From: Podospora anserina
Lineage: Eukaryota
NCBI GenBank assembly: GCA_017654855.1
Contig: CM030337.1
Coordinates: 372,001-436,000, forward strand
Direction of reading: 5' to 3'
Length of the DNA stretch: 64,000 bases
Below the pieces are notes generated by a model, which saw nothing but the letters and a program-made list of their open reading frames with translations, searched no databases and was not told the origin of the DNA. This document shows positions 5,709 through 53,855 of the stretch, in pieces (the stretch's first letter is position 1; every line of letters begins with the position of its first letter). The position numbers and the translations under genes were made by a program.

Positions 5709-5795
5709 GCCCGGCTAGCTCAATCGGTAGAGCGTGAGACTCTTAAGGAGTACTCCGATATCTCAAGGTTGTGGGTTCGACCCCCACGTCGGGCT
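5709..5795 (+). tRNA. tRNA-Lys(CTT) with intron
   Basis: GCCCGGC/GTCGGGC acceptor stem, TAGCTCAATCGGTAGAGC D-arm, TGAGA-CTCTTA-intron-ATCTCA, GTGGGTTCGACCCCCAC T-arm. Confidence 0.97.
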
Positions 5796-6204
5796 CAATT
5801 CCCGTCGAAACGACACTTAAGACCATGTTATTTTTTGTATTTTTCTTTTGACTTTTGTTGCTCTTCATCTTGCTGTCGATGGCATTTCACTCTCACCATT
5901 AGTGCAGGGTGTTAGTGGATGGACAATATGCCTAATATCAACCTGAATTAGGAGAGTAGTGTATTCCACTCACCATGAAGCAAGACTTCACCGCCTTATC
6001 TTTTGATATGACTACTACTAGAAACACTACCTGTCTGGTTCGTGAGCAACATAGGGGGGATTCTTTCTTTCTTTACGAACATAGCTTGACCGTTACAGAC
6101 CCTCGTCTATACCTCGATTAGCCAAACTACTTAGATATTGTAGGCCTCGAAAACCACATTAGACTTACAACGACAAGAATGAGTAGGCCATATTTCCCAG
6201 GTTC

Positions 6205-7318: not shown

Positions 7319-7389
7319 TGCATCAGCCGTGAATCGAACACGGGGCCCATCGATGGCAACGATGGATTTTACCACTAAACCACTGATGC
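7319..7389 (-). tRNA. tRNA-Gly(GCC)
   Basis: Reverse complement GCATCAGTGGTTTAGTGGTAAAATCCATCGTTGCCATCGATGGGCCCCGTGTTCGATTCACGGCTGATGCA folds as a cloverleaf, anticodon GCC. Confidence 0.96.
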
Positions 7390-7841
7390 TTTTAGGGTTG
7401 TTACATGTTAGGGGGTGGACCTTGTACCTCAATTTGCAGCTTGTACCCACCCGCGATGGTGTTTCGAGTCAGACATCATGAGAAAAGGCATGGATATCAT
7501 TCCCCCAACCTAGAGCTCATCAAGCGAGAGGGTTGTATGCATACATGCCTGAAGTTCAGCTACAATAATAAATCTTATATACTAGTGTATTCTTCTTCTT
7601 AGACACCTTAAACACTCACCTTACACCTCTTAGGTTCCAACCACTAGCTACCTTTATCTAGCTGAAAAATGCACATCTAACAAAAGATAAGACCGACAAC
7701 CTCAACCCAGCTATATGTCATAGAGAAAACCCGAACACAACGCCAGCCAGGTGGCCACCAAGCCCACAAAACCTAAACAACAAAAAGACATCATGACTGG
7801 CCTAATGAGAAAAAGAGATCGAATCGCATCGACGGGAATTG

Positions 7842-7932
7842 AGCCCGACGTGGGGGTCGAACCCACAACCTTGAGATATCGGAGTACTCTGTACATAAGA
7901 GTCTCACGCTCTAACGATTGAGCTAGCCGGGC
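7842..7932 (-). tRNA. tRNA-Lys(CTT) with intron, D-loop G19->U variant
   Basis: Near-identical to the copy at 24725, but D-loop reads CAATCGTTAGAG instead of CAATCGGTAGAG. Confidence 0.9.
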
Positions 7933-10900
7933 AAGGTTATACCCATTATTCTATGTGTGGCATGTCCCAGGGTGGGTTTATGTGTAGTGTAGGGCTTTGT
8001 GTCTTGTGGAGGTTGATAAGAGGTGTTCCCTGGGGGCGAGCAGCACCACTGACTCGAGCTTGGGATTGGAAACAAGCTGGCAACCCTTGGGTTTGTGAGG
8101 AAACCTGGGTTCGAAAGGTTGGTCCTGTGGGAAGCTTGAGCTTGGAGTTGAACTTGAGCTATGAGCTTTTGGGATATGCTGTGACCATGTGCCTGAACAT
8201 GTGCGAGCCTGAGGATATTCCCCCATGTAGGTAGTTTGAGCCAAGATGATCTGGGTCAATCTAACAGCTTGCCCACTCAACATTTTGCCCAAGTTAAAGA
8301 TGAGTTTATTCTCAAAACGTGAGCTTTGTCAGTCCTAGGCTCTGCCCACTATGGCCTGGATCTGGCTCTATTAAAATGATTATTAACACCAGAGAGGATG
8401 ATTCTATCTTGTATTTGTCTTAATGACTGGCCAAGTGACTGCAGTTTTGAACTCTGTTTGTAACTGTACAAGCTATTGTGCTATAGGCAGAATGCGTGAA
8501 AGACACAGCTACCAATATATCCTCAAAGCCATACCTCTCTTCCTTCCATCAAGCTCCAGGCTTCGAAGTCTTCTCACCTACTTTGGGTCTTTGTTCTCGA
8601 GCTTGCCTATTTATCTTTTACTCGAGGAAGTATATGCATGTACTGCTTAGATTTATATGGCTTGCAAAACCTATCATGACCTATAAGGCAGTTCCAGTTA
8701 TATGTCGAATTTGGATTTCTATGCGTTGAACCACGAGTGAAGCTCTAGGTATCAGGGCATCTGAAGAGCATGGTTGTCCTGCCCAATGGTCTATTTGTGG
8801 ATGAGGCATCTCAATACCTTAGGTGCAGTAGAAGTCATTTCAACGGCCAGCCGACACTCTCCTGCCACCCGGGTCTAGGTAACTTCCTTTCTCGTCAAAA
8901 AGTTCGATGTAGCAGAGTATGATGTGCCGAATTGCCCAGTTCTCAGCCCTGGAAAGACATCATGCGAGGAACCCGGGCATCATAAACGACCGACCTCCCA
9001 TCCAACCCTTTGCCCAATGACGAGAATGCACCGTTGCTCACCAAGCCGTCACGATCCCGTCACAAACGAAACACATCACCCTCTGTTCATTCCTCCTTAT
9101 CACTCATGGTGTAGACCCTCTAGTCTCGCGATGCCATCACCAGTGTCTCCATATATAACCCACCGGCACTTCGCAGCGACATCGTGAGCCTTCCAAGTCC
9201 CGTGACAAACTAACAGGTGTCAAACCTACCAGTCAAATGTCACGGTCGCTTTCGCTTCTAACTCAGCAAGTTACTTCCTCCCTGAGTGATAAACTCGTTT
9301 TTCACACCCTCACCAGCCCATCCCGTTTCAACTCCTTCGGCACGAGCAGCCGAGAACGGTACCCATGACGACCGGTACAAAGTGAAAGGAGCAAGGGGAA
9401 CACAAAAGTCGGAGGGAACCAATCCTCTGAGTAATAACTCATCCAGGAAAAAAAGTTATCGTTGAGCATAACCTCCTGCCCACCGAAGGTGAGAGGAGAG
9501 GTCTGACCGTACACCGCCACGAACCAGCCTTGTCAACCGACTGGCTGGTTGCCCAGGCAAAACAGGGCTGTTGTTTGGAAAAATTTTCATTCCTTCCTGT
9601 TGGTTCTCACCTTCTAGCCCCGGGCGTGGTCGACCCGTCTGGGTGCTATCAGGCAGGGTATTATAGCTCCGGGGTTGACACCTCTTTGGGATGATGACAC
9701 CCGCCATCAACCACGCAGCCCTCCAAAAAATTAAATAAAACGGTCAAACAACAAAGTCCCGACAGGCAGGGATCTTTTTTAGGACTCTGTGGAGTTTTGC
9801 ACGGGAAGACCGTGGTGGACACGCAGTGGGCTGCTGGTGGTGAGACGAAGGTGTGGAATTCACTTGGAGAAAGCACGCTGGAACATTTTTAACAACTGCC
9901 TGTTCGGTAGACAAACCCGTGAGCGCCGAGTTGAAGTTTTACTTTTTTTTTTTGGCTGTTCTGGGGTTAATACGGAGAAAGAGTGTACAGAACGGGTTCA
10001 CATCCCGAATCAAGCAGGCTGTTGTTGAAGAAATCAAGGGACAGAGACGGCCTGAGCTTTGGGATTGGGTAGGTATGATACCACCGGCATCCCCCCATCT
10101 TTCTCTCTTGGGATCTGGGGTTCGGTGAGAAAGAAATATCGGCAGCATGGGGCTCTATTGGTTAGCGTCTTCCCACGCGTGTGGCATCGGAGACGTGTTC
10201 CCAGGGCAGGCAAGTCAAAAAAAGTCACCTGCTTGACAGTCCATCCGCCTAGATTAGCGAAATATCATGTTCCATGAATGTGGGAGGAGCGGGAGAAAAA
10301 GAGGTTTCAAAGGCAAAGGGGCATGAGGAAGGTGGCCGCCATGACGGTAAATCTACCTGTGTCTTGGACAGGATGATGAGGCCATAGAGTGAAGAAATAA
10401 TGCAGGAGCGGCAGTGGTGGTTAAGGGCGATGACGGGTGTGTGTCGTAAAAACATCGCTCTCGCTACCAGCTCGCCAACATGTCAGGGCCGGCCGGTGAT
10501 GAACAGGACAAATATTCAAGCCCAAATTTCACGAGCCGTCTTTCCCCGTCGCATATCCCCCAGATTTCTTTTGAGTGGTTGCATTTGGATACGCACCACC
10601 CACATCGCATCGCATCGCATCCGCCTTGCATCTCGCATCGTGACCCCCCAGGGTAATGATCCAGAGGCAACCATTGCTTCTTTCCCTTACCTCGTGCTTC
10701 AGAACGATGACTCTCCCTCCCACACCAAGCCTCAGGAAATACCGAGTATTCGGGCCTTTGAGAGATGGTGGTATCAACGGGCGGGACGCGATTTCGCAGT
10801 GCAGATCGCGTTCACAGAGCAACTTGAAACGCGCCTCCCAAAACGTGGTTAGCTTCCATGCCGAGCACATGCCCAGCCGGCTGTTCGTCCCAGGAGCGAC

Positions 10901-11230
10901 GATGACAGCAAACGGAGCAAGATAACGAAAAGGGAACAGAACCAGAGAAGGGGGGGAAAAAACCCCAAAAAAACCAAAAAAAACCGAAATTACCAAAAAT
11001 GGCACAAGCGGAAAGCTTCCCCGGCCGGTCCCAAACAAATGATATCCCCGTTTGGACGGTTGGAAGTCAAAGTCATGATGATGACCGCCGCTCGATGCAA
11101 CACAAGAGCCGACCAAGGGGAAGTGACTCTTGCTGCTAACCATTTTGCTGGAATTGGTGAATGGTTGCCCTGTAAGCCTGTGCGCGATCATTGGCGATGG
11201 TTGATTGAATGAAAAGGCTTTGTTGATGGT

Positions 11231-11269
11231 GGTGATCCAGGTGATCCAGGTGATCCAGATGATCCCAGG
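11231..11269 (+). repeat. 9-bp tandem repeat (GGTGATCCA) x~4
   Basis: ggtgatccag gtgatccagg tgatccagat gatcccagg. Confidence 0.8.
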
Positions 11270-12171
11270 ACCCATGTCTGCAAGGTTCCCAAAATGCTTC
11301 CAGAAGAGTTCACTGGTGATGATAGGGGCGCGTGCGCTTTTTCCAAGTGCTTGCAGAAATTTGAGCGTCCGTGTCATTTCTTCGAGACCTGGTCCGGCCC
11401 GCGCATGCGCCATGAGGACCCGCCCGTCCGGATTGCTTCCCCGTTCCTGCATCGCATACGGAGTACACTACAACAACACGCCCAACACCGGGCAGCGGCC
11501 AGGTTCGCAGCCAGAGTGTGCACTGATATCACCAGGGCATGCAGACGCAGATGACAGCATCGCCCGAGAATACGGATAGCCCGCACCGTATCGTCTGCTC
11601 GCTCTTCCTTCTGCGTCATTGCGACGTGCAGAAAAACGATATGCGCAGTGGAGTTTGGCGACCCGGGTGACCCGGGCCCTGTGGCAGGCTTTGCAGAAAT
11701 GGGCTTAGCCTCATCGCGGTTGATGTTCCGTTGGGTCTTCTGGAAATTTGGATCTGAGTGCTGGGCAACAGACAGCTCGACAGGCCACCTGCTCCGTTTT
11801 GTGCTGATGGGGCCATTGCTGCCTCGTAACGGAGGTCAATCCAGGGATACTGACAGATGACCACAAAAACGGACCAGCTCTCGTCCAGTGCTGTTCTTCG
11901 CCAATCTTGAAATCGCAGCGAGATTGGGCTCATATGCGCCATCTGAAATGTGGGATCAACACTGTCTCAAAACCGTAGAGGCAGAGCTTCACTTGACACG
12001 TTCCGGCCGCAAATGGGTGCAGGCAGCAACCCTGGGCTGCTCGATGCAGACGAGAAACATCGAGCTGTCAACCTGACGATCCTTGGCTGGCGGAACACAC
12101 GTTCGGCCGTCACATGATGAGGCACAAATGCAATGCCCAGCACCGTGAGTGGACGCCTGTGCGTGAATGGA

Positions 12172-12216
12172 AATCTTCCCTCAACCGCCAATCTTCCCTC
12201 AACCGCCAATCTTCCC
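12172..12216 (+). repeat. 18-bp tandem repeat (AATCTTCCCTCAACCGCC) x2.5
   Basis: Direct reading of sequence. Confidence 0.8.
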
Positions 12217-15200
12217 ATCACGCGCCTGCATGACGGTGCATGGTCGATCTGAGCCTTCCGTGTGGCCGCTTGTCCCGATGCGCCGCACCAGCTGTCCAAC
12301 ATAGCCAGAGCCAGCCCCGACTGATGAGTTGTACAGATGTATGTCGCTGCTGAAGAAGGACAATATTCCAAAAAAAAAAAAAAAAAGAAAAAAAGGACTT
12401 GTCATATGCAGCAGCAGCAAGCTAAAGACGGGACCGACCGAGTGGGAGTTGGAGGAGTTGCAGCAGCTCCCTCTCTGCCCTGCGTGGTGTTCTGGGGTCT
12501 GCTGGTGAGCTAATGCAGGAACAGAACCAGACCCCTGGATAAACTCCGTCCTGTCGGCCGCTCACGCGTGGCAACAGCTTCCTGCAAGGTACCGTATCAG
12601 CAACGGAGGCACCCGAGACTCAGGCGGGAGCAAAGTACCCAATACTTTGATCCCATCGTCTCACCAGAAAGGGGGCGAGCGGGGGCCAAAACCTCAAACA
12701 ACATCATGGGTACCTTGCCAAGAACCCTCCACCTGCCTCAGCTCACCACTTTCTTCTCCGACAAGACCTGGCCACAGGAGTGCCTGCCGATGGGGTCCAC
12801 AACACGTGTGAGCTTGCCCTGCGCCTTGCCATGGTATGTTTCCTTCGTCTGGGTCGCCTCCGATAAGTTCGGTATCGACGAAGGCGTACCCCTTTGTTGA
12901 GGGGGGGTGCATGATGACAAGGCTGCCCAAACACTTGGTTCGCATTGCTGATTGGAATGGGGCAAAACGGTCGACATGGCATCGGGCAGCCAAACTGCCG
13001 CGTCATCCTGCAGTAAGGTAGGTGACAGTTACCTATCATTCGGCGAAAATGGTAGTAGCGTAGGTAGAAACCCCCAAGGCTGATGGTCTTACAACTTCCC
13101 ATGTCGATTGTACAGTGAGTGAAAAAAAAATCGTCTTGTATCGTTCATACCTACCCGGGACACCGTGACATGGCATCAGGCTGTGAATCGAATTGCGGGT
13201 TCAAAGAACGCGGGGAGGCGAGGTCGGTACATAATTCGAGCCTCGCACGGCAGCAACTATTTCCAGCAGACTGCACCGTGTCCCCAGAAATAGTGATGGG
13301 TGGTGAATAATTGCAGAAAATACGACGGCTGGCGACACAATGTGCTCCCTTGCCCTTGCATCGAGTGTGAGGGACAGGATGTATCTCCGCAGGGTTCACC
13401 TCGGTGTGTTGCCGTTCGTGTTTGATTGCAACATCTCATATCCATTACGCTGGATGACAGCGAGCCGAGACCACCACCTCGTCGTGGTGAAAAGTGAACA
13501 ACGAGGCTGGCCTCTGTTTCATAACCTGCGGAGGAGGCCCCCACCTCGGCCCTCGGCGCTCTCGTGGCAGAAACGTGGGCCGGCTGGCGCTGGGGCTCCC
13601 AGAACGGGAGGTGAGATTGGCAGCGGTGGAAGGCTTCCAGAAGGTTTCTGCTGCAGGAGATGGCTGGTGGAAGCGGCCGGCACTGCTGGGCCAAGACGGA
13701 TCGATCAGTTGGGTCGATCCTCGGCTTTTCCTTTCCCAGCAGGCACCGTTGGATGGCCCGTTTTCTCCCACGCTGCAACCTGGAATGCTGGGCACAACTA
13801 CTGCGCTGGAATATATGGGATGCCAAACCGTCCTGCATGCATCGGAGCATAGTTTGTGCGTCCCCGAGTAAGCCACTATGCTGCCGACAGACCTGGCCCC
13901 AGACTTTGTTAGTGGTGTCCAACTTTGTCCAACTCTGTCCCACCCATCTCAGACTCCATGATGATGACGCCTCGCTTCATTGCTTTTGTGCTCACCTGAT
14001 CTGCTGTCTCGGCCAGCCGTGTCGAGGACTCGGAGTGAATCCAATATATATATATCAGTTGAGTCTATCCATCCCGCACACGGACAGGCGGACGGGCATT
14101 TCGTGGGTCGAGGTCGTGATACTTGATGGTTCCGACTAATTTGGTTGTGCTCCTCGCCGTCCGTCGTTGCACAGCAGACGAAAGCTACGTGCCCGCTGAT
14201 ATCTGCCCGAGAACAGGTTGGACAAGATATTCAGCTGCCCTCGTCCTTGCTGCTTGTTTGGACGCCTCAAGTTCCCGTGTTCCGGCGGAGAGAAAAATAG
14301 GGGACAATAACACGCGCTGAGCACGGGGGAAAAGGCCACCCGCCTCCCGGGCGATGCTGTTGTGCAAGTAAGTAGAGTAGGTAACCTCCGCAACTGCGTG
14401 CGTAGAGGATGTGGGTGGTACTTTGATGGTCTAAGACAAAAATCAGATACATCAATTTTGCAAATATTTACCAAGTCTCCATTCTACGCAGTGAAGCATC
14501 CGACATGCTGTAACGGCGCGCGCGCTGTCGAGAGAGCACCGGATATGCGACCCAGCTCCTTCTTTTGTGGTCTTGCATGCGATGGGGCGGTGGATTGGGC
14601 ATCACCGCATCGTTTTGGACGCTTGATCTGTCCCCGGTGTTTCTTCCGGCTCCTCACCTTGGGGCATAGGGCCAGCATCGTGAGCGCATGCCGGCTGTCT
14701 TTCTTCTTTAGCTCACCGCTCAATCACCGGCAGTTGGCGTGCTTCATGTGTTGAAACCCTCTTGCGCGCCCATCGCCAGCCGTTGGTGGTGTCTGACGCA
14801 AAAATTCAAAACTCGAGGCGAGAGGGACATCAGTGAAAAGTATTTCCGCATGGCGAGTCGTTTTGACTACGATGGAAAGACAACCCCGTGGCCGGGTAGC
14901 ACACCGTGAGGAAGGAAACGGAGGCTGTTCCGGTGTTACATTCCCATAGCCCCTCCACCTAGCCCCGCCCCCATCTGTACATACCAACAATACCTGACAG
15001 ATACAGCACCCAGCGCCGTAAAACTACAGCGGACCGCACCGAAAAATGCTTGTGCTTAGAAACACTCAACGGCCGTGGCTGACGACCAGATGGCATGGCT
15101 GCCTTGAGCTCTAAGCCCTGAGCTGAGTCATCAGCCTTCGTGCGTGAAGTGCGTGTTGTAGTAGGTAGGTAAGGTATGTGCTGCATCATATCCGGGGCAG

Positions 15201-15950
15201 GTATCGGTCTTGTATGCCATCTTCCGATCTTTTTGACCTTGGCTCGGATCCGGCCCTGGGGCAGACGGCGTTGAAGAAGCAGCGGAGTGGAGAGATGCAC
15301 CTAAAGTTCAACCGACTGGGCAGCAACCAGCAGCGGATGCAGCAGCATGCGAGGCCACCTAGACTATCATCCACGCGACGCTCTCCATCAAGACGTTCCC
15401 GATAGCACTGGACAGAGGGCCTGCCCCGGACTCATGGCATGCAGGCGACTGGTCTCGACTCGCAGACAAGGTGAGCTGTTCGTGCCATGCACGATGATGA
15501 CAGCATACCCCGCGACGTTGGGCGTCTTTCCCATCTGGGGCTCTTAGCTGGGGACAGCTACATCGAACTCAGTTCCTGCTGCTTTGCGTCTGTCGGCCGA
15601 ATGGTTATGGTCGAGGACTCGAGCTACCCGGGCCTACCGATCTGCTTGGTCGATAGGCCAAGAAGGCCATGTACAACGGCAGACGTGGACCCCCAGTTAG
15701 CCAACACTATGGGCTGTGAGCAGCTTTGCTATCAGGTGTGGGCCTAATAATAGGAATATATATCTGATGCAGTGCCACGACGACCAGCAGGTGGGAAAAG
15801 AGCCTATTATGCGGTGCACAGATGCATGGATGGATCTTCCGGGGGATGTGTCTCGAGTATCACGGTACCTCACTGGTTCCGAGATGGGAGCGCACCCGAC
15901 TTGTTTTGCGCGCCATGCTTTTCGGCGATCCACCCGTGGACCTCCTCTCA

Positions 15951-16019
15951 GGTGGTGTGTAGTGTGGTGTGGTATGGTGTGTGTGGTATGGTGTGGTGTG
16001 GTATGGTGTGGTGTGTGGT
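15951..16019 (+). repeat. Degenerate (GTGTG/GTATG)n microsatellite
   Basis: ggtggtgtgtagtgtggtgtggtatggtgtgtgtggtatggtgtggtgtggtatggtgtggtgtgtggt. Confidence 0.85.
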
Positions 16020-17954
16020 CTATGAAGCTTTGCTGGCGCTTATCTCGATGCGGGCTTTTTGGAGCAGCGAGTTGGAGATTTGGAGGGTCCAGTCTACTCC
16101 GTAGAAGTGCCGTTGGAGAGAGATGGGGGGAGATGTGGGCAAACGAATCGAGGCCTTTTTGGAGACATGTTGTTCCTGTTTGGAGGATGTTGTCTGGGCT
16201 GTGAGAGTGTGATTGTGATGACATGACAGACCATGGTCAAAGCAAACGGACGGCGCAATCCAAGACACACACAAAAAGTTAAATAAAATAAAAAAGATGA
16301 AAAAAATAAGGCAGGTGTGAATCTGATTGCTCAAAGGGCGCAAAGAAAGCAACTACACAAAAAAAGTTTTTCCTCTCCGTTTGAAATTGCACGGAGACAT
16401 TTGCAACGCCTGGAACGGAAGTCGCAGCCCGTTGTTGCCAGCCACTGTTTCTCTCTACCAACTAAAGCTCCCACGCTCCTTCCTATCCTCCCGTCCAACA
16501 TATGTCATCCATCCCGTCCATCCAGGGCAGGTCCAACTCGGTCGGAATCAGCTTTGCAGGCACTGCCTCGGGGTTTCGTACGCAGCGCACCCGACCACCC
16601 GACGTTCCATGCCTAGGTAGCTACACTAAGGTACTCTCTGCATGGATTTAGAGCGACAACAACCAAGGGGGGGACTAAGTATTGCACATTTGTCCAGAAG
16701 TACGGGTGTAGCTCGTGGTTATGGGGCCGACTACAATACGGATTGGGAACGCATGTGGCTTGTGTATCCCCAATCTCACTCGGGCCATCGACACTCGTTT
16801 CCCCTTTCATCGCATGTCTGTCCTGATGAGGGCAGCTGTGTGGACGTGCACCCGCCTGCAAATGCAACTGCACCTCCTGCTGGTCTGGTTCCTGGATTGC
16901 AGCGCTGTCCCAGCTTGTCGTTTGCCCGTTGCTTGTGCTGATCTGTGCCCTACCTAGGTAGATCCGGGCCGAGAATATTAAAAAAAACTGACAAGTTGCG
17001 ACTACAAACAAGACGATGATGTCTTGTCATCGTCGCTGTGGTCGGCGTCTGGAGAGATGGCTCGACGCTATGCTCTGATGGTCACCTTGGTGCCCACAGT
17101 GTCGCACACTCACAGGATGCTGGTTTCCCAGCTGCCAGCGGTACATGGTACGTGTGTCCTCACGCTGAGCTCTCACGCTCTCGAGCTGCTGTGGGCCCAA
17201 ACCACGATACCCCTGGCCTCAGGGAAATCCGCCGAGCCTGTCCGCTGGGATTCTGAGATGGTACATCCCGGTCCCAAAAAGGGGGACAACGGTGTCAGTC
17301 TGGAACGGTGACTCTCCACGCACGTTGCTTTGGGTCGAAACGGAGCTGCCCAGGGGTAACAGGGGTAGCAGGGGTAGCAGGGATGGGTACATTGGCTACA
17401 AGGTCACTCGGTACCTTTGAGGTGTCAGGGAGGGAGGTGTGCAATTCAACGCCAACGCCAGGCCCGGGGGGAGCAAGGGCAGGGCACCCAGGGAAAAATA
17501 GGCTGCTCTCATCATTCCCTTGTGTCCCAGCGATCCCATCCTCATTATAAGACCAAAGGGCCCCCCTTCCCCATTCCGAACATTTTCTTGGATTCCCATC
17601 ATCACACACCTCACCCTCTTCCTTCTGGCACAGGCTCCTTGTTGTTCCTGCCCCTGACTCCGGTCTCTTGTTACCATTGCATCACCGACAGCCTCGACTT
17701 AATAATACAACTTCACATCCTTCGACTGGCCGACTTGAGAAACCCAGTAATTCGAGGAACCACAGAAAGAACACGACGAGCTTGCCTCTGGACTGTCACA
17801 TACTGCGCCTCGCTCGGAAAACCAACCGCGACAGCCGACAGCACCATACATAAACCGCCATCAGCATCCCCTGACCTGACTGGACAACGCTCCTTTGCAT
17901 CATCATCGCTTCAACCGCTTCACCAGTCCTTCGCCCGTCGAGGACTTCTACACT

Positions 17955-18101
17955 GTGAGTCACCTGCCTCTTTTCAGGAAATTAAATTTTCCCATGGGTT
18001 GCGACGCTTGGCCGTGCAACGCCATTTTCCCTTGGTCTATATATATCGCCTGCGGTGCGGCACAGAAGGAAACGAAATGTGCTAACATGGCGCCGTGTCA
18101 G
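17955..18101 (+). other. Predicted 5'-UTR intron of the micropeptide gene
   Basis: GTGAGT donor at 17955, GCTAAC branch site at 18081, TCAG acceptor at 18101. Confidence 0.65.
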
Positions 18102-18135
18102 CTTCGAGTCCATTTTCGCTTCACACACATTCACA

Positions 18136-18231
18136 ATGATTGTCAGAGAGTCAGAACCCCACGCCAACTTCGGCCGCGGTGCCTATGACACCACCGGAGT
18201 GCCAAAGCCGCCTCCTCCCAAGCCCCGGTAA
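18136..18231 (+). CDS. Predicted 31-aa micropeptide MIVRESEPHANFGRGAYDTTGVPKPPPPKPR
   Basis: Strong fungal start context TTCACA-ATG, C-ending codon bias, upstream canonical intron, long T-rich 3' region; below the ORF-track length cutoff. Confidence 0.6.
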   Translation: MIVRESEPHANFGRGAYDTTGVPKPPPPKPR

Positions 18232-21200
18232 AGACCTCTCATATCGACCGGGAGATCAGCTGCAACCAATCGATTTTCCATGCAGATGCAGAGGCGGCAC
18301 CCATCTCTCGAATCACCACCCACATCCATTCCATTTCGATCCATCCTGAGGAGGAGCGACATTTTTTTATCCCACGATATCGACTTTAATCGCGTCTGTA
18401 CCACAACTTTCACCACCTTTCCCACCCCTTACTCTTTACCTAATCGGCGGTCTCGCATTCCTCTACGTCACTTTTTAATTACCATTCCTTACACATGATA
18501 CATTTATCGGCTCGGTGCCACTTGCTTCCCAGCAGCAAGTAAGGGAAGAGAAAAACGGGAGGCTTCATTCTGGATCTTTTTGTTTTGTGTCGGCTGCGCG
18601 GCGTTCAGATATATAGATGGATCGGCTTATTGATTTTTACGGGCGGTTTCCTCACTCACCACTCATAATCGACACCGATCCGCCCTAATATGCCATCACG
18701 GGCACATCAACGGTTCTGCGGTCGCATTTCTGGAGAGTTTTTTTTTCCTTTTTCCCTTTTTTTTTTCTTTTTCCTGGGGAGTCACGGTATGGGAAATCGG
18801 GATAAAGCAGGCACAAGAGGTGCTTGCGGCAAGAGTTTAAAAGGGTCAAGGATTTTTTTGGCTGGTTTTTGGGATGGGAATAAGGAACGGCCGGAAAAAA
18901 ACTGATTCGCATATAGACTCTTTGCATTTGTGTTTTTTTATCTGTATTTTTTCTTTTCTTTCGACGTCTTTGTCTTCCTCACGGGGACAAGCGTCTACAC
19001 TCGACGACACACATTTCCTTTTACCCTGTCATCACTACCTGTACACAAGCGGCGGAGTTTTACTTTTTTTCAACTTCGGCCACGAAGGGTTCTGGGCTGG
19101 GTCCGGTTCGCAAAGATACCCCCCATGGTTATTTTACTTTTTATTTTTTATTTTTTACTTTAGACATGTATATTACACGATGGCTTCACAGCCAGCCCAG
19201 CTCTGACCGACTGGGCACCAGGATCTGAGAAAATAATACGGATTCAACCTCTTACTTTTTGGCTCCTATCATGGCAATGTGAAACAAGCAGGCGGGAGGT
19301 AGCTGAGAAGAAGCATCGCGTGGCGGTAGTCATGATTGAGCAACCACAACAGCACCTCCGAGGAAACAGGAGAGTCATTTCCACTCATTCCCCCTTTGGC
19401 TGTGTTACCTGCTCAACCGGGCAATCAACACGACGATGACAACAACCTCCATCACCCAGATCGCACCCCCACTCCTCCTCAAGCCAGCTACTCAGCCCTA
19501 CACAGCTTTTCTCACACCGAACGACGCGGAATTCTGAAACGTTCCCCCCCCCCCCACTGGGCCGCCGGGAGCCCCGCGGGCACCCCGCGGGGTGTGATGT
19601 GGGCTGGCGGGATTACTCGGGTGTATTGCGTATATGTGAGTATTAAATCCGGAATCGAACCTCGTCGACATTCTGACTGATGACAGACTATATCCTCAGG
19701 CACACTCCGTCCTGTGTAAAGGAGGCAATGCAGGTTCTTTGTGCATCGCGTGGGGAGTCATACCGAGCAGGTAGGTAAGGTAGGTATGAATAGAACCACT
19801 ACACAAACTCTGGAAACCAATGAACAAACTAACCCGTCCGTTCCACACCTCTCCGAGAACCGAGAGCGGTCCCGGCCCAACCACCGCGCACACCCGACCC
19901 GACTGCTCGGACTCACCGTTGAACATCACTCTCGCAGCTGCCGACGTCATAATATGTGTTCCCTCGCTCAGGTACCAACGGTCTTCTTGTTTTTGCTGCT
20001 GCATGAATACAAAGCCAGTAGTCTAAAAATGTTTCGGGCCGGGCAACAGGATTGGATCGGTCGTAAATGGCCCGAAACGAACTTTTGGGTGTTTTTTTTG
20101 GGGGGCGGGGGGGGGGAGGACGGTTTCTTACTGTGCTGCTTGCTGCTGCTGACCGGTAACAAAGTCCGAAGCTTCCGAATGGACCATAATCTCTGTATGT
20201 AGGTAAGTAGGTTTCGTCCCAGCAGGGTGGCTCGGTAGGTGCAGCAGGAATACGTAAGGTTTAGTGTAGGCAAGGCAAGGCAAGGCAAGGTACGTTACAT
20301 CTGCATGTAATGTATGTCCCATCACCCATTTTTATTTGGCTTGTTTCTCATGCATGGTGACCAACAAACAGTAGTGTGTACATTTACCGTAGCTTAAAAG
20401 GGAACTTTACTGTGATGGATGGACACACACATACACACACATACCGTACAAAATGATGACAAAAAGCCTCTAGCGTGTGATTGTACGGCAAAGCAAACCC
20501 CCAGATTAAGTGTAATGGTGGGCAGTAGAATGTTCTATGGAGGATGAGAAATGCAAGCCCACTGCCGGTGGGGAGAAAGAAGAGTGGGTTGTGCTACACT
20601 TGGTGGGAACATACTATGGGAATATGTATTGACGGCACAGCACAGTCAGAAAGACAGGTATTGGGTTGCTTTCTAGTGAGAAGATGGTGGGTTACACACC
20701 AGGCAGGCTTCTACTGCTGCCCCCTTCGGCCACGGGACCATAAAAATCCCAAACCACGTTTCCCATGTTGCTGTGTCGGTTGGGGACTTTGTCTATGGGT
20801 GGTTGTAGTGCAGAAGCAGAGTTGGTGTACCAAGTGTGGATGATATCAATGGGCACAAGCATACAATAATAAGGGGTAGGTGAGAAATGAAGATGACGGC
20901 ATATGTCTGTCGAGTTTCTCATGTTCTCTCTTGCAGGCTGACCCTGCGTCTTGCGTGAAGTCCATATCCGCAGCTGTTGGAGATGGATCGGAGAAGGTTG
21001 CGAATTGCAGGGGTGAAAACGGACAACGTCCAGTTTCGGACCCGGGACTGCGGACCTGGGACGGCCTCGTGCAGTCTCCTTTGCTGCACGATGCACCGGG
21101 AAAGGCCGCCGGGGGTGGGGTGCTCCAAGATGCTGGGTTTTAGAGAGAGAGAACTGCCCCCCACTTGCCTCTCTCTTTCATAGATACAGACAGCTCATGC

Positions 21201-24200
21201 AAAGAAATGAAAGCCAATCACTGATAGCATGCCGTCTGGAAAATGCTCGCTTGTGGTTGACGTCTTGGCTTGAGACTTTGTTTTGTTGGAATTTGTGGCG
21301 TCTGGGGGTTGCTTTTGATGCTGAGTGAGGCACTTGAGGGAAACATTTGGGTGGGGTTGTCCAAGTTGTGGCTTGCAATTCGAGGGATGATCCACTTCTG
21401 GCAGCCCGTGGACACTGGCATGCTCCCGGCAACTTCTCCCACCAATCTCCTGGAATGACCCACTCGTGACAACCTTCATATATTCAATTTGAACAGGCAC
21501 GTGTATGCTGTCATCCAATGAGTTGGAATCTCTGTCCGCAGATGACTCGGTTGTATATTTAAAACTCTCGGTTCTGTTTCCCTCACTGCGGCACCGCCAC
21601 AACACGGCTCCGAGCTAGCGCCGGATCGTATTGTTACACTACGTCTTCCATCATCGCCTATGCGCTGGTGGTCGACTACGCCGCCATGTGCGCAGCAGTC
21701 GATGGTCCCCTTCGTAAGACGCAAGTCACCCAACTGAGAATGATGACCACCATCATGAACAGGTCGCACCGGGTATTCCCTTTTGGATCCCGCCCACCGT
21801 TCGCTCTAGCGTTTTGCCTTTTGGCTCACCGACAAGCTACCGTCCGTTGCGGCGGTTCATCCCATCTCCCATCATCATCATCATCATCGTCATCACCACC
21901 AACCGCCAACATCCCGTCGTTTCCGTCTGACATACAGGAGAAGTGCGTGGGGGTTGTCTGCTCACTCGTCTCGACGGTTGCCTGCTCCACCACGCCCAAA
22001 CACCGCATTCACTGATATGAGATACACACGACTATCTGGCTGGAAAGTTTCACCGCATTGGGCCAAATTGCTAATGGCACGTTGGTGGGGTGAGCTGTGA
22101 TTGTGTATCATTTGATCTGTAACCTCACTTTCTTCTTTGTTTCCTCGTCCTTCTCTTCGATTCCCTTTCGTTGGACAAGACAGACTCTCGGCTCGTGTTT
22201 TCATTTGCACTAATGCCCATCAATGGGGCATCCGGAGCGACAGTCCATCGCCGGGCCTAGGAACGGTGATGCCGCCGACTGGTTGCCATGGGCCGACAGG
22301 TCGTCCATTCGCGCCCCCGGCCCAGACCGCGGAGGGATTCCCGGTAGGATGGCTCGTGATGGGTCGCTCTCGCTTGGGGCGTCGAGCCCGCAGGCGGCGC
22401 TCTGAGACAGGAGATGGTCCCCACTTGACAATCGCCAATCCTGGGACGGCGTCGCTTCTTGACGGTGATCGGTCCAACGAGCCTTTCCTCTCGAGGCTTG
22501 GTTCCTGATTAGGCGTCGGCCATTCTCAAATCCCAACTGGGATTCCCCTTGAAGTGGCACATTGGTATTGGGGTCCATTCCTTCTGGAAACTGTGGACAC
22601 ACACAGAAGCCTTCCCAGTCAGCGCCATCGCTTCCCATTTGCCGGTGCTTGGTGTCTGGGCACTACATTCGTCTGCAGCAGCATCACTTTGATCCCGACC
22701 CCTTGGGTCTTCTGTTGCTGTGTGATGGTCGAGCCGTGTGGCTTGAAGCTGAACTTTTCCCATCACTGTCCTTGCTTTGACAAGGTGACAAGCAAGCTCA
22801 ACCAACCTGATATGTCTCATCGGTTTTGAAAACTCTTTCGCAGCTGGATGCTGCTTTTGGAACCAGGAGACGTCATTGCCATCCAACTTTGATATGTCAC
22901 TTGGCCCCCTGACGCAAATGCCAAAAAGGCCGACGTTTTCTTATTTCGAGACTTGGCGGCAGCGAATGACACAGAGGCAACCAAAGACACGGGAAGTTTG
23001 AAAAAGCAAATTCCAACTAAAGCCTCCCGCCACCAAAAAAACAGCTTTGGATTTTTGGTCTTGACCCATGAACAAAAGGCAAATAGTGACGCAGGGGAGT
23101 TGAATGAGGCACTTGCCCTCAAAGTCACTCTTTTCTCCCTCGAAACGGAGCCCATTCCCAGCACAATTACGGGAAACACCCGCCGTTTTGGAAGACATCA
23201 CCCTCCCCCAAGACAGTCCCTTTAAACGGCGTTAATCATCGCTAGTCCCACGTGCTTGACGCCGCCATACGCCACCGGTAGTCTGAGGGGTGTTTCCCCG
23301 GGGGCCCGAAGAGACCAACCGGATCTCGCCCGTCCACTTTCCCACTTGCCCACGTTTTTTAGTGCAAGCGGCGGCTCTGGTCGGTCTTGGATTGGGGGCC
23401 GTCTCAAGCTGGCGTTGTGTCTCGGAGCCCCTTGATCCTATCTTGGTTTTAAGTAGTAAGCACCTTATCAGAGCTCCGGATGGGGGTGGGTATGTTGAGA
23501 CATCGAGATTAACTAGCTCTGAAAACTCTGAAAGGAAAAGGATGGGTTTCCCAACGACGGAGAAACACGAATCGGACCTAGGTTGGGATCTATCACGATC
23601 TCCGGTCAACTTTCTCGGTGGGATCTTCAATTGCTTCTTTCCCGGGGGCTCGAGATGTCAAAACGGTGCGGTGAAACCCGGATGGGGAATAGACAAGGAG
23701 AGAGCCAAGGGGCCTGTCGATGATAGTGGCCTTCGAGAAGTTCTAGCTCTGTCCCGAGTGGATGGTAGCTGGGATCGTTGGAGGCAGCTAGAATTAGGGC
23801 GAGGAGCGACAACAAGTGTGGCATGGAGGGTGTGAGGGCCATTAAGGGGTGTAGGTAGCACACATAGAAGAACAACGCACACCACACCACAGAAGGATCA
23901 GGTGTGAGTGGGATCGGGCATCAGTTTCGGCAGTAGCGGGGAATAGACAGGGACAAGATTGCCTCATGGCAAGGAGGTTCAGCTGTCTGAGGCAATACGA
24001 GGCGAACGGAGGTCAGCTTAGTGAGGTCTCATCAGCTCAACATTCTCTTCACGAGAACTTGTGTCTGTGCAGAAGTATTGTGTACAAGATCACAGTGTGC
24101 ATTTCGTTCGGCAAGTTATCGGGGGCTTGAGCAGGTTGACAGTGAAAGCAGAAGTCAGAAATGAGCAGGCATGTCATGTCTGACCTGTAGAGACTGGGGA

Positions 24201-24724
24201 TGAACATGAAGGTTCTGACTATAGTAGACCAAACCTACCTATGTACCACTGGTTGGCGCCTCTAGGCCATCTTCAAGCCTCTTGGGGAATCTTTCAAGGC
24301 CTATCGTTCATATTTCAAGGTCTCTGTCTCAAGCAGCACTGCAGCGGCCTACTATCTTGTCCTCGACATTAGAGGGTGTGAACGATAACAGAAACTGACT
24401 TATTAAGCAGAATAGTTAAGTCCGAATCCATAGATCTCAGTTCGGATTGGTACCTTGCCAAGAGTTCTATACATGTGTTTGAGAACAGCACATAGCTAGC
24501 AAAATACCTATCTATCGGCAGTTCATGCTCTCACCCAACCCAGAGCTCAGATTTTGAGATACCTTAGAATAACAGGGACAGGCTGAGTTTCGAGTCATTG
24601 AGGAGGCAATATCAACCAGCCTCATCCCAACTTACACCATCCTCCACACACTCCACACTTCCACAAACCCTACTCATAAACCCACAGAATGTCACCACAA
24701 CCATCAAATAATGGGTGTAGCCTC

Positions 24725-24815
24725 GCCCGGCTAGCTCAATCGGTAGAGCGTGAGACTCTTATGTACAGAGTACTCCGAAATCTCAAGGTTGTGGGTTCGA
24801 CCCCCACGTCGGGCT
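24725..24815 (+). tRNA. tRNA-Lys(CTT) with intron
   Basis: Same cloverleaf as the 5709 copy; intron ~TGTACAGAGTACTCCGAA. Confidence 0.97.
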
Positions 24816-25135
24816 CAATTCCCGTCGACAACGATTCGATATCATTTTTGTGGTATGCTTCAAAATTGTCTTATAGATGGCAGAGTCCTTGGTTGGGAGC
24901 AAGACTCGCCTCCTCATGGGTGCAGTCAATAACCAAGTTCTTTTTGCTTCGTTGACGAGTATTGATCTGATTCTGATTTGCCTGGTCATTCGGGCGATGA
25001 TATGATAGTGATATGAGCACTGCTGTCCAGAGAGCAAATTGGTAACTTGTCATCGAAGAGCCGTTTTCGGCCAGAAGCTCCTACACCACTCGTCCACATG
25101 AACCGTCATGCGGTCGAAATCATACACAGACAACT

Positions 25136-51020: not shown

Positions 51021-53855
51021 CTAAAACTCCATCGCCTCCCCCTGCTGCTGCTGCCCTCCTTGGCCCAGCCAACTCCCTCCCCTAACCCACTCCACAACCT
51101 CAAAGCCAAGCCTCCTCTCAATCTTCTCATCAACCACAACCTGCTGCTGCTCCCCCTGACTACTGCTCCCCCCCTCCTGAGACATCAAAACAGGAATCTT
51201 GACCGCAATCAACCCCCCAGCCTTGATCTCCACACCTCCCCCCTGTTGCTGCTGCTCCTTCGGCGACAAATTCGACGACTGCTGCTGCTGCTGCTGATAA
51301 ATCCCCTTGACATAAACCACCAAATCCGCCCCAGCAACGCCCCTCCAAAGCGTAGCCATCCACTGCCAGTGATCCACCGGCGCATATGAATCACTAATGG
51401 GTGTCTGACAAGCAAACTTATCCGACAGCGTCAAGCTAAACCCGCTAGGAAGAAGCGCGATGGGCACCTTTGAGGATGACGCATGACCAGGCAGTGGATG
51501 CCGGTGTCGAGGGGTGGGCGTCATCGACTCGGTATCCAACGAGGGGTGGCTCGCCGACGGGGAGGAGCCCTGCGGGGAAGTGACAAACGAGACAATCTCG
51601 TTCGATTTGGCGTGCCACTTTGTGATGGTGCGGAGGTACGTCTCGAACGGGCTAGAGTCGGATGGTTGGCGGAACGGAACCGGCGTCGTGCTGCCGGCTC
51701 TGGAGCCGAGGACGACCTTGGAGCTGCTGGCGTTGCTTTCCCTGCCGGAGAAGCTACCGGTTCGCTCTTTTGTTGTCCCGTCGTCGGACGATTCGTCATC
51801 GGCGGCGTTCCATGTCCTGATATCCCAGTTCTCGCCTCTTTCCTGGCGCAGGGCACGCTCGATGACACCGCCTACAAGCTTCATCAAAGACAGATCAACC
51901 CCTTCCACAGCAATTATAGGGCCTCGCCTCTTCTTCCGAGTTCCCTGGGGATCCGAACCCAAAGGAGGAGAAATTCGTTCCAGAACTCGGAGCTTGTTGA
52001 TGTAGGAAATGGACATTACCATCGCTTCCACGCTGCGTCGGGCGGCTTCCTCCTCCTTGGAGTCTTGACGGGGGTTGCTTTGGGGACCAGAAAAGGCAGA
52101 AGGTGGGTGGGAAGAAGAGAATGCGGTTTTGGTGCTGGAAGGGTAGGCACTTCCAATTTCAGACTCATTGTCTGGGGAGGTTGGAATTCGAGAAGTAGAA
52201 GGATTACTCGTTGAAGTCGACAGATGGAGGGGAGGCAGGCGGAGGGACTCGTCAAACTCACCACCAGTCGGAGGTTGGGAAGCACCGCCGGAGAGAACAG
52301 ACGACAATGAGCCAGTGCGTTGTTGTTGGGATTGGTGTAGGTATGTTTGATGCTGTGGTGGCGGTGGCGGGTATTGGTGTGAAGGAGGGCCGTACGGAGA
52401 TGACACGGACAACGACAAACTTGGGGCTCTGGGAACGGGTGGAGGAGCCATACTCCCCGTGATGCTACCTCCTGACAGTGGGCTCGGTCCTGGGCTGACA
52501 CGAGCAAGCATGGAAGATGGACCCGGCAGTTGCGGAGGCCCGTAACCCGGTGTGGGCGAACTGCTCATGCTCATCGAAGCTCGAGACACAGACCCCCTGG
52601 GAGGCCCGGGGTATGAATGAGGTAGTGGAGGAGGGGGTGAAGGTAGGGAATGGTAGTTTTGGTAGCTTCCTGCTGCATTGTACTTCCTACGCTTGGCTTC
52701 CGATGGAGAATAAGGATCTTCGTAGTGTTCACGAATATCGTACAGGCTGGCACCACTTCCTTGTGGTCCCCATTGAGGTCGAGCGGCTCCTCTTGCCGAA
52801 GCAGGCGTTGGTGGAGGTTGCTGGTGGCGAGGGTAGCCCGGAGGTGGTGGATGGCCTCCTCCGCCTGGAAAAGGGGGCTGTTTCGCCGCCGTGGGAGTCA
52901 TGAATGGCGTAGATGGTGTTCTCGGAGTGGCAATGTATCTTCCTCCACAGTTTGGACACTTGTGTGGATCTTGTCCTGGCGCAGTTGTTCTACCTGATGG
53001 AGCACCACTCTTATTTCCTCTTCTCGGCTGGTATCGATAGCCTGGAAACTGTGTCTGATGCCGCAGCTTTTCCGCCTCTGCCAGCTCTTTCCACCTGTTT
53101 TTGGACTCTTCTGGCTCAGCCTTCCAGTTCTCGCCAATGATCTTGGAAATATCCGGGTTGGCGAGACCAGGATTTTGTTGAACAATCGTCGCTTGATGGG
53201 CTTGGCGATAGAGTATAAAAGCTAACCACAGCCCGAAATCAGCGATCAACTTACAGCAAAGGCACAAAAAAAAAGAAAACATACCGTTTCTTGGTCTTGG
53301 AATCTTCGGTGGAGGTGCGCAAAGACAGACAAGATCCTGCCCAGAACCGTTGTCCTCTAGAACACGGTCACCGTGAAAAGAACTAGGATTGCTTGTAGGT
53401 GTCTGAAGGGTCAAGCTCTCGATCCGTGAACGGTTGTTGGCTTCCTCCGTGTTAATGGACGCCGCTCGCTTTCTAGTTATTGGCCCGCTGCCGAGCTGAA
53501 AAATATGCCCGTGCGAAGAGGAAGAAAAAGAAGAAGAGCCACGAGTAGAATGGGCAGGGCCAGAGGGTAAAAGAGGAGCTGAGGTCACAATGTGAGTGTC
53601 TTGTCTTGTCGATGTGGCCCTTGCAGCCGGTATTGATGCTGACTCTCCGCCTCCGACGGCCGTTCTTATGGACGAAGATGTGGACGGTGTGCTTCCCCCT
53701 CCTGCCAACCTCGCAGCAGACATGGCTGAGCGGGTTAAAGGGCCAGTCTGTTGCTGCTGATGTGGTTGCTGCTGCTGCTGTGAACCTGGTGGCTGCCGCT
53801 GCTGCTGTGAGGACGAAGGTATTACTTCTGTCATTTTTCCTCCCCCTTTTCCCAT
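51021..53855 (-). CDS. MATA/SOX-type HMG-box transcription factor (Rox1/Rfg1-like). Intron 53284-53222; start 53855 or 53834
   Basis: KIPRPRN|AFILYRQ.HQ..IVQQNPGLANPDISKIIGENWK....KNRWKELAEAEK.RH..QFPGYRYQPRR; CPNCGGR motif; P/Q/S-rich regions. Confidence 0.92.
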   Translation of the reverse strand: MGKGGGKMTEVIPSSSQQQRQPPGSQQQQQPHQQQQTGPLTRSAMSAARLAGGGSTPSTSSSIRTAVGGGESASIPAARATSTRQDTHIVTSAPLLPSGPAHSTRGSSSFSSSSHGHIFQLGSGPITRKRAASINTEEANNRSRIESLTLQTPTSNPSSFHGDRVLEDNGSGQDLVCLCAPPPKIPRPRNGMFSFFLCLCCKLIADFGLWLAFILYRQAHQATIVQQNPGLANPDISKIIGENWKAEPEESKNRWKELAEAEKLRHQTQFPGYRYQPRRGNKSGAPSGRTTAPGQDPHKCPNCGGRYIATPRTPSTPFMTPTAAKQPPFPGGGGHPPPPGYPRHQQPPPTPASARGAARPQWGPQGSGASLYDIREHYEDPYSPSEAKRRKYNAAGSYQNYHSLPSPPPPLPHSYPGPPRGSVSRASMSMSSSPTPGYGPPQLPGPSSMLARVSPGPSPLSGGSITGSMAPPPVPRAPSLSLSVSSPYGPPSHQYPPPPPQHQTYLHQSQQQRTGSLSSVLSGGASQPPTGGEFDESLRLPPLHLSTSTSNPSTSRIPTSPDNESEIGSAYPSSTKTAFSSSHPPSAFSGPQSNPRQDSKEEEAARRSVEAMVMSISYINKLRVLERISPPLGSDPQGTRKKRRGPIIAVEGVDLSLMKLVGGVIERALRQERGENWDIRTWNAADDESSDDGTTKERTGSFSGRESNASSSKVVLGSRAGSTTPVPFRQPSDSSPFETYLRTITKWHAKSNEIVSFVTSPQGSSPSASHPSLDTESMTPTPRHRHPLPGHASSSKVPIALLPSGFSLTLSDKFACQTPISDSYAPVDHWQWMATLWRGVAGADLVVYVKGIYQQQQQQSSNLSPKEQQQQGGGVEIKAGGLIAVKIPVLMSQEGGSSSQGEQQQVVVDEKIERRLGFEVVEWVRGGSWLGQGGQQQQGEAMEF

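Follow-up and report, generated by a model that had tools for sequence, protein, structure and literature searches.

A 31-residue peptide gene of Podospora anserina and the Pezizomycotina-wide micropeptide family to which it belongs

To our knowledge, very few conserved micropeptides of fungi have a known role, and the closest described systems are of several kinds. The arginine attenuator peptide is encoded by an upstream open reading frame (uORF) that lies ahead of the main open reading frame (ORF) of Neurospora crassa arg-2 and yeast CPA1 and causes ribosome stalling. The lipopeptide pheromone precursors of Sordariales, mfa-1 and ppg2, have about 24 codons, an abundant transcript, a long 3' untranslated region (3'UTR) that has been reported to be important itself, and a CaaX end. 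The proline-rich ligands of SH3 domains, WW domains, and profilin are short linear motifs. In arthropods, Pri (tarsal-less, mille-pattes) acts through Ubr3. The Pri peptides of 11 to 32 aa are made from a non-coding-looking mRNA of ~1.5 kb and carry an invariant unstructured LDPTGQY element that is repeated within each gene, according to the available text of PMC11475943. The subject of this report is a gene for a 31-residue peptide of Podospora anserina, located in a stretch of 64,000 nucleotides (assembly GCA_017654855.1, contig CM030337.1, positions 372,001 to 436,000 of the forward strand). This whole stretch is referred to as the window, and all coordinates are positions in it. By its sequence, the peptide is a member of an undescribed family that spans the Pezizomycotina.

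The transcript evidence comes from the Logan contigs of four sequencing runs (X1, X2, X4, and X9, one run from each of four studies), aligned on positions 12500 to 25500. Positions 16500 to 20500 are covered by 22 of 24 public runs; 16 are RNA-like by prediction, and none is registered as RNA. A GT..AG joint, 17954/18102, which skips 147 nt, is found in all four of the RNA-like runs, so the intron in the 5' untranslated region (5'UTR) is real. The contigs start before the joint at 16995 (X1), 17121 (X4), 17580 (X9), and 17628 (X2), and all of them reach 17954. From 18102, they continue unbroken up to 19224 (X4), 19242 (X2), and 19254 (X1 and X9), and the X1 contig has an A-run loose end, AAAAAAAAA, past 19254. 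The contigs of the four runs contain no second joint 3' of 18102 before the transcript end at ~19254; therefore, the stop codon at 18229-18231 lies inside the mature RNA. As the contigs continue to 19224-19254, the tail of ~1 kb is a true 3'UTR of ~1023 nt. Within the 13 kb examined (12500-25500), there is one further joint, 14057/14217. Positions 17580 to 19254 of the + strand are a real two-exon polyadenylated gene, with the following parts:

17580..17954, + strand: exon 1, all 5'UTR, ATG-free (contig pieces; 5' end approximate)
17955..18101, + strand: 5'UTR intron of 147 nt (joint in 4/4 runs; donor GTGAGT, branch point GCTAAC, acceptor CAG)
18102..18135, + strand: last 34 nt of the 5'UTR, ATG-free, start context TTCACAATGA (sequence)
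18136..18231, + strand: predicted coding sequence, 31 aa and stop TAA (family conservation, codon periodicity, pN/pS 0.28)
18232..19254, + strand: 3'UTR of ~1023 nt (continuous contigs; the ORFs inside it are without relatives among the loci described below)
19224..19254, + strand: 3' end and poly(A) site region (contig ends; X1 loose end AAAAAAAAA)

The ORF makes up 96 nt of a transcript of ~1.5 kb. Much of the preliminary description, which had been drawn from the letters of the window, is borne out by these data. It had placed a GTGAGT donor at 17955, a GCTAAC at 18081, a CAG ending at 18101, and a TTCACA-ATG with its ATG at 18136, and these signals and the ORF are all present at those positions. 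The splice junction that it proposed is the 17954/18102 joint, and its T-rich, 3'UTR-like tail of ~1 kb corresponds to the unbroken part of the contigs and has a GC content of 0.482 and an AT skew of -0.139 (18001-19000). That the gene is genuine and its frame conserved is likewise supported, by the purifying selection and the family in filamentous ascomycetes that are presented below. Of the outcomes that the description had named as refuting it, those concerning the transcript, its splicing, and the conservation of the frame did not arise. The bias toward C-ending codons exists and is modest only (14 of the 31 codons). Contig depth, which is a poor measure of expression, is 28 to 525 across the transcript versus mostly 0 to 32 in the flanking bins.

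The ORF at 18136-18231 encodes MIVRESEPHANFGRGAYDTTGVPKPPPPKPR and ends with a TAA stop at 18229-18231. The spliced leader is ATG-free over 17386-18135, with the last upstream ATG at 17383, and the intron contains three ATGs; an ATG-free outcome for a leader of 438 nt is obtained in just 1.6% of shuffles. The ATG at 18136 is the first AUG of the mature RNA. There is an in-frame stop upstream, at 17548-17550, and therefore an N-terminal extension of the ORF is impossible. The peptide starts with MIVRES, which fits the pattern M-[IV]-x-R-[ED], and 12 residues precede the core, GRGAYDTTG (residues 13 to 21), which is followed by a Lys/Pro tail (core and tail together, NFGRGAYDTTGVPKPPPPKPR). The coding pattern of the core occurs once in the window, with 0 occurrences expected. 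The tryptic peptides predicted from the 31-aa sequence are ESEPHANFGR and GAYDTTGVPKPPPPKPR.

Database searches show that this peptide is widespread. A homologue search was run with the 42-aa in-frame translation of 18103-18228, and 7 of 7 candidates matched. With the 31-aa query, a phmmer search of 1.84 billion representatives (E<=1e-3) returned 86 hits, comprising 83 family members and 3 repeat proteins, and a profile search collected 193 proteins at E<=1e-3. The core is found in 170 of the 173 collected proteins, and 151 modules have it exactly as GRGAYDTTG. Around it, the 133 distinct single-module sequences are nearly uniform, with Asn at position -2 (118 sequences), Met or Phe at -1 (123 sequences), Pro at +10 (117 sequences), Lys at +11 (129 sequences), and Pro at +12 (all 133). 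The tail past the core has 9 to 13 residues in 112 of the 133 modules, and its last residues vary (R, K, Q, RR, or S). The family layout is thus M-[IV]-x-R-[ED], ~6 variable residues, N-[MF]-GRGAYDTTG-[VTL]-PKPPP, and a short Lys/Pro-rich end. The window peptide has the core in the form N-[MF]-GRGAYDTTG-x-PKP, a tail of 9 to 13 residues, and the usual spacing of the core from the initial Met, which is 11 or 12 residues in 47 of 54 distinct environmental loci.

Members of the family are found in four classes. Among Sordariomycetes, these are Podospora, Neurospora (NCU03451), Sordaria (SMACR_12796), Thermothielavioides, Pyricularia, Colletotrichum, Trichoderma, Fusarium, Verticillium, and Xylariales; Leotiomycetes are represented by Monilinia, Pseudogymnoascus, and Oculimacula, Dothideomycetes by Alternaria, Zymoseptoria, Venturia, and Cercospora, and Eurotiomycetes by Penicillium and Trichophyton. 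NCU03451, SMACR_12796, the MGG_17295-like proteins, and QC762_604015 all belong here, and every named member is annotated as a "hypothetical protein" or the equivalent. The gene had at first been taken to be unannotated. This is wrong because the exact sequence is already in public databases: NCBI, UniRef, and nr list it as a 31-aa protein (P0089, on 2 contigs), the ESM Atlas contains it too, and its relatives, such as NCU03451 and SMACR_12796, are annotated. The database models are 29 to 320 aa long, and most of them are over-extended at the N terminus or read through the stop. Two models from Podospora sister species (158 and 169 aa), flagged by their source as LOW QUALITY, share the identical C-terminal 31 residues, which points to the Podospora anserina species complex as the origin of the window. 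Both models join the same two exons (...VEDFYT, then LRV...), and the junction is legible in P0009.

Searches for relatives of other kinds return little. Pfam contains no family that matches any of 6 peptides (E<=10), the PDB profile search gives no matches, and the ESM Atlas, which holds the sequence, offers no usable neighbor. Motif strings, locus tags, and topic searches (the best-ranked titles and abstracts for the topics) yield no published description of the family. The available text of PMC6794485 and PMC7394265 does not mention it; the supplements of these papers, which might list SMAC_12796 or the cluster, lie outside that scope. What the databases list as a nameless hypothetical protein belongs to a subphylum-wide micropeptide family with a conserved architecture and 3'UTR motifs.

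Some proteins depart from the single-module form. Ten database proteins have 2 or 3 tandem modules within one ORF, with acidic spacers between them; the 7 that are named all come from Xylariales. The inner copies in these proteins are not adjacent to the stop. The tandem-module forms (GRG[AS]YDTTG and a Lys/Pro tail) are P0008, P0013, P0014, P0017, P0020, P0050, P0059, P0060, P0071, P0088, and P0165, and the genera named are Anthostomella, Xylaria, Annulohypoxylon, and Rostrohypoxylon. In Pyricularia oryzae, a diverged paralogue type, MIMQ..MRDAYDTTGVPKPPPPKPR (P0083 and P0098-P0100), has lost the GRG. It is present at several places (three Y34 scaffolds, and MGG_17295 under two accessions) next to the canonical copy, P0006, and may be carried along by a repeat.

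The reading frame can be followed at the DNA level in environmental sequences. Metagenome contigs were scanned with back-translated [MF]GRGAYDT, which gave 246 matches; 129 of these passed tblastn, and 80 loci (L001 to L080) were kept. The ORF could be parsed in 68 of the 80, which together with the window represent 54 distinct coding sequences. Within the core, the first two positions of each codon do not vary among the 54, whereas the third takes 2 to 4 bases, and the third positions are saturated. The three-base periodicity continues outside the search pattern, and the entropy per site (maximum, 2 bits) rises to ~2 bits directly before the ATG region and past the stop. For the 11 codons outside the pattern, the proportion of synonymous differences (pS) is 0.64 and that of nonsynonymous differences (pN) is 0.18, giving a pN/pS of 0.28; the shifted frames give 1.07 and 1.31. 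The periodicity and the low in-frame ratio show purifying selection at the protein level and rule out an incidental ORF. The ORF is 30 to 34 codons long in 51 of the 54 sequences and ends with TAA in 42 of them; A or G stands at -3 in 38 of the 54 distinct loci. Because the loci were chosen by a back-translated pattern, it is the phmmer search that serves as the independent check of core conservation.

Among the 233 frames of at least 50 aa in 9000-27500, wide conservation is confined to the micropeptide frame, which is found in 18 of the 80 environmental loci. The remaining ORFs of the transcript (54 to 110 aa), including the downstream ones of 71 to 110 aa, look random and are without relatives in those loci. 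In six loci (L015, L021, L050, L059, L061, and L071), which were excluded from the codon counts, a long open frame takes the place of the short tail after NMGRGAYDTTGVPKP, and there is no Met where the usual spacing would put it. Such loci could be fusions or decayed copies, or could have an intron that follows PKP.

The preliminary description had proposed the surrounding desert as the control region of the gene; the conserved non-coding parts at the gene are a promoter block of ~180 bp and the 3'UTR motifs. The former is the following:

17446..17629, + strand: candidate promoter/start block C, ~180 bp, with TATAAG at 17546-17551 and CTTGGATTCCCAT at 17587-17599 (blastn and MAFFT against 7 loci)

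The 13-mer CTTGGATTCCCAT is present exactly in 8 of the 80 loci and once in the window. The X9 and X2 contigs start inside block C (17580 and 17628); contigs cannot show transcription starts, and transcription presumably begins in the block C region, near 17580-17630. ATTCC occurs twice near this presumed start (17571-17599).

The leader architecture also recurs. A canonical intron that ends 5 to 80 nt before the ATG, with ATG-free exons on either side, is found in 31 of the 46 loci with enough upstream sequence, compared to 5 of 2047 control ATGs of the same loci. The recurrent 5'UTR intron is most often of the GTGAGT...GCTAAC type, and the window gene has it at 17955-18101. One contig, L002, is intron-less: aligned with its relative L009, it has a gap at L009 positions 2743-2980 that starts at the predicted donor, 2743, and ends ~14 nt beyond the predicted L009 acceptor, 2966. 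Judged from this alignment, L002 resembles a spliced form of the gene from a different species, in support of splicing in a relative. The ATG-free sequence ahead of the ATG extends over 445 nt in L002, 304 nt in L010, and 524 nt in L075.

The 3'UTR contains three conserved elements:

18445..18620, + strand: block A, with TTTAAT, TCGGCTCG, GCTTCCCAGCAGCA, GGCGTT, and ATAGA (nhmmer, alignment)
18600..18618, + strand: two-part linear motif GGCGTT-N(0-25)-[AT]AGA[CT], here GGCGTTCAGATATATAGAT (motif scan of loci)
19048..19131, + strand: block B, which includes AGATACC at 19114-19120 (blastn and MAFFT with 11 loci)

Block A is found by nhmmer (E<1e-8) in 25 loci, always on the + strand and 190 to 320 nt past the stop, and is present in 24 of the 48 distinct loci whose downstream sequence spans 450 nt or more. 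Of 49 distinct loci, 40 have its two-part motif, GGCGTT-N(0-25)-[AT]AGA[CT], within 1 kb past the stop. The reverse strand has the motif in none of the 49 and the upstream sequence in 1 of 36, and the remaining 350,891 nt of the loci, taken as background, contain 2 matches. AGATACC is found within 1300 nt past the stop in 31 of 41 loci; the reverse-strand count is 1 of 41 and the upstream count 1 of 25. The window gene has both motifs (18600-18618 and 19114-19120), with AGATACC ~135 nt ahead of the poly(A) site. The loci were selected by the peptide only, so the linkage of these motifs to the peptide is an independent observation; the motif set includes loci with peptide types matching Eurotiomycete and Dothideomycete proteins. 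Block A of the window has three copies of the hexamer CATTCC, for which the block A counts across 24 loci are 43 forward versus 1 reverse. We take CATTCY to be the DNA site of TEA/ATTS factors (AbaA/Tec1).

These elements do not appear to be structured. The alignment of the two-part motif gives 0 predicted pairs and no consensus structure, and Rfam has 0 matches at E<=1 in 16500-20000. A 5-bp hairpin at 18521-18539 has 2 compensatory pairs, but its single-sequence z-score is -0.87, and partners slid by -3 pair equally well (92.7% versus 91.8%), leaving the hairpin unsupported. A second coding frame in block A was also considered and rejected: its ATG, at 18495, is not conserved and is ACG in other loci. 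The 3'UTR motifs are probably linear sites, most simply for RNA-binding proteins, or alternatively oriented sites that act at the DNA level.

On balance, and with somewhat better than even confidence, we favor the view that the gene encodes a translated, disordered short-linear-motif ligand whose core docks on one conserved partner and whose mRNA is tightly controlled via the promoter, the leader intron, and the 3'UTR sites. In the AF2 model (20-sequence alignment), the chain is extended and forms neither helix nor strand, with a mean predicted local distance difference test (pLDDT) value of 67.8 and a predicted template modeling (pTM) score of 0.20. The peptide would be translated efficiently from the first AUG and would act in trans as an unstructured ligand. 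Its invariant core would dock on the partner, and the basic polyproline tail might add a second, less specific contact, either with a proline-recognition domain or with an acidic surface. The 3'UTR motifs (GGCGUU...AUAGAYGG and AGAUACC) would be recognized by RNA-binding proteins that govern how stable the mRNA is, where it is located, or how it is translated.

Several points weigh against this view. The invariance of the core among the environmental loci is partly circular, given that the [MF]GRGAYDT pattern and tblastn selected them. Translation of the ORF is itself inferred from the sequence. The sequencing runs are RNA only by prediction, and transcript abundance can be judged from them only weakly. 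The 3'UTR motifs are about as widely kept as the peptide, and a function at the RNA level could be equally or more important. Finally, neither SH3 pattern is kept in register in the tail, the class I pattern fitting 31 and the class II pattern 20 of 49 distinct peptides.

The first alternative is a regulatory ORF that acts in cis, the nascent peptide with its PPPP run stalling or slowing the ribosome and thereby controlling an RNA whose function lies in the 3'UTR. It might be a sensor of eIF5A or polyamines, or a nonsense-mediated decay switch, and the nascent peptide would fit the ribosome exit tunnel. Translation of polyproline requires eIF5A, and the polyproline run is conserved, with the Pro at +12 never replaced; moreover, the Met-core spacing is nearly constant, and the ORF comes first in an RNA whose 3'UTR of ~1 kb has motifs that match the peptide in breadth of conservation. 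However, there is no conserved downstream ORF to regulate, and the arrest peptides known so far rely on their C terminus, which in this family differs in its final residues and in tail length. Most of the loci use TAA, the most efficient stop, and the tandem forms with 2 or 3 modules put modules far from the stop. The tandem modules, the variable C-terminal end, and the TAA preference argue for a modular trans-acting peptide rather than a ribosome-arrest peptide, and we consider the cis-acting version unlikely.

It is also improbable that the product is the precursor of a processed, modified, or exported peptide, for example, one that is pheromone-like, resembles a ribosomally synthesized and post-translationally modified peptide (RiPP), or gives rise to a peptide-derived cofactor, with the acidic N-terminal part as the leader and GRGAYDTTG... 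as the core. Known fungal peptide precursors are similarly tiny. The succession of leader, invariant core, and tail would suit such a precursor, as would the acidic spacers of the multi-module forms in Xylariales, the Asn two residues ahead of the core in most modules, and the very small size. By inspection, however, the N terminus (MIVRESEPH) is polar and not hydrophobic or signal-like, and there is no CaaX end and no regular dibasic site between leader and core. No modifying-enzyme gene recurs nearby, the downstream neighbors differ by clade, and none of the frames beside the gene in the window has been kept in the loci. An invariant product shared by a whole subphylum is also unlike the hypervariable cores of toxin-type RiPPs.

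The preliminary description had read the tail, PKPPPPKPR, as a class II SH3 ligand, which would make the peptide a modulator of SH3 signaling and a special case of the short-linear-motif ligand favored here. The tail is indeed proline-rich and basic, a character that is conserved in the family. The class II pattern PxxPx[RK] fails on the window peptide, though; the class I pattern, [RK]xxPxxP, is present at K24, and a pattern match of this kind is not binding. With class I fitting 31 and class II 20 of the 49 peptides, the family has no conserved SH3 register, and its invariant element is GRGAYDTTG, not the tail. We regard this special case as quite doubtful. The last alternative, a long non-coding RNA with an incidental 31-codon ORF, might be suggested by a 96-nt ORF in a ~1.5-kb RNA with conserved non-coding blocks, but it can be dismissed as extremely improbable, given the pN/pS of 0.28 in frame versus >1 in the shifted frames, the saturated third positions, the end of conservation at the stop codon, and the start and stop positions that are kept across four fungal classes.

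The peptide has a nine-residue invariant core and is kept across Sordario-, Leotio-, Dothideo-, and Eurotiomycetes, a range that takes in genetic models (Neurospora, Podospora, and Sordaria) as well as plant pathogens and biocontrol fungi (Pyricularia, Fusarium, Zymoseptoria, Colletotrichum, Verticillium, and Trichoderma). Comparative and omics studies tend to miss the family because its gene models are inconsistent (29 to 320 aa, often over-extended or with low-quality flags). With its conserved promoter, intron, and 3'UTR signals, the gene offers a compact mutable system for telling the function of a peptide from that of its RNA, as well as a route to new binding sites of fungal RNA-binding proteins. 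If there is one conserved partner, it probably belongs to core biology specific to filamentous ascomycetes. A bolder proposal, which we hold as a long shot, is that the peptide and the 3'UTR motifs form one old, subphylum-wide regulatory module. In such a module, RNA-binding proteins would localize a dual-purpose RNA or gate its translation, releasing bursts of a Pri-like unstructured switch peptide that flips one conserved enzyme (e.g., a ubiquitin ligase, kinase, or phosphatase) controlling a process of filamentous ascomycetes, such as hyphal fusion, septal pore plugging, or development.

The surroundings of the gene contain other features. The gene had been described as the only convincing gene-like unit in ~17 kb; it is the sole widely conserved frame there, as the test of the 233 frames shows, but the flanks have low-depth contigs, the spliced unit with the 14057/14217 joint, and a tRNA-Lys gene. 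That unit is a second spliced transcript, 13802-15947 (+), with a 159-nt GT..AG intron and a CTGAT branch point, and its joint is found in 3 of the 4 runs. It has no convincing ORF, its frames of at least 90 aa being random-looking, and it may be another non-coding or small-ORF RNA. Two runs cover positions 21736 to 24373 with ~2.6 kb of continuous RNA-like contigs at a depth of ~30; a convincing ORF is lacking there too, and the five ATG frames of 97 to 142 aa look random. The features located by prediction are as follows:

24725-24816, + strand: tRNA-Lys(CTT), 92 nt (tRNA prediction position)
5709-5796, 7319-7389, 7841-7932, and 35934-36005: four further tRNA genes
25136-26872, - strand: lariat debranching enzyme DBR1 (Pfam)
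46807-48042, + strand: Hsp70 (Pfam)
51021-54071, - strand: HMG-box protein (Pfam)

Loose contig ends and a depth peak at 24722-24830 fit a multi-copy tRNA gene. The window also has WSC, methyltransferase, EF-hand/mechanosensitive (MS) channel, and Macro-domain frames (Pfam). As for synteny, no frame that flanks the gene in the window is conserved in the environmental loci. By-eye reading of the translations suggests that, ~1.2 kb past the stop, the neighbor in those loci looks like a Rab5-like small GTPase or is Arp2/3 p16-like, depending on the clade; the two neighbor groups are L025, L038, L076, and L078 on the one hand and L022 and L064 on the other. An analysis of the nearest long ORF in the loci was uninformative, as stop-to-stop frames of 200 aa arise by chance at this composition.

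Compared with the systems outlined at the start, the gene shares with the arginine attenuator peptide a short 5'-proximal ORF in fungi whose peptide is conserved across them, and the attenuator acts via its amino acid sequence. In contrast to the attenuator, there is no conserved downstream ORF here and the RNA ends at ~19254; with no main ORF downstream, this is not a uORF of the attenuator type. The tiny ORF and the long 3'UTR are reminiscent of mfa-1 and ppg2, but the window peptide ends with ...PKPR and has neither a Cys nor a CaaX end. Precursors of the Kex2-processed or dikaritin type differ as well: on inspection, the N terminus here is polar and there is no KR between the leader and the core. 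As in the ligands of SH3 and WW domains and profilin, the peptide has a polyproline run of basic character, KPPPPKP, which agrees with the class I SH3 pattern; unlike in those ligands, the register is not conserved (31/49) and the invariant element lies outside the proline run. The most extensive likeness is to Pri/Tal/Mlpt: a 31-aa peptide, an mRNA of ~1.5 kb, an invariant 9-mer with no predicted structure, and 2 or 3 repeats in some lineages. The Pri repeats are separate small ORFs on a polycistronic RNA, whereas the modules here lie within one ORF, and the one system belongs to arthropods while the other is a fungal family. By analogy, and with no homology claimed, Pri/Tal/Mlpt would be the nearest known kind.

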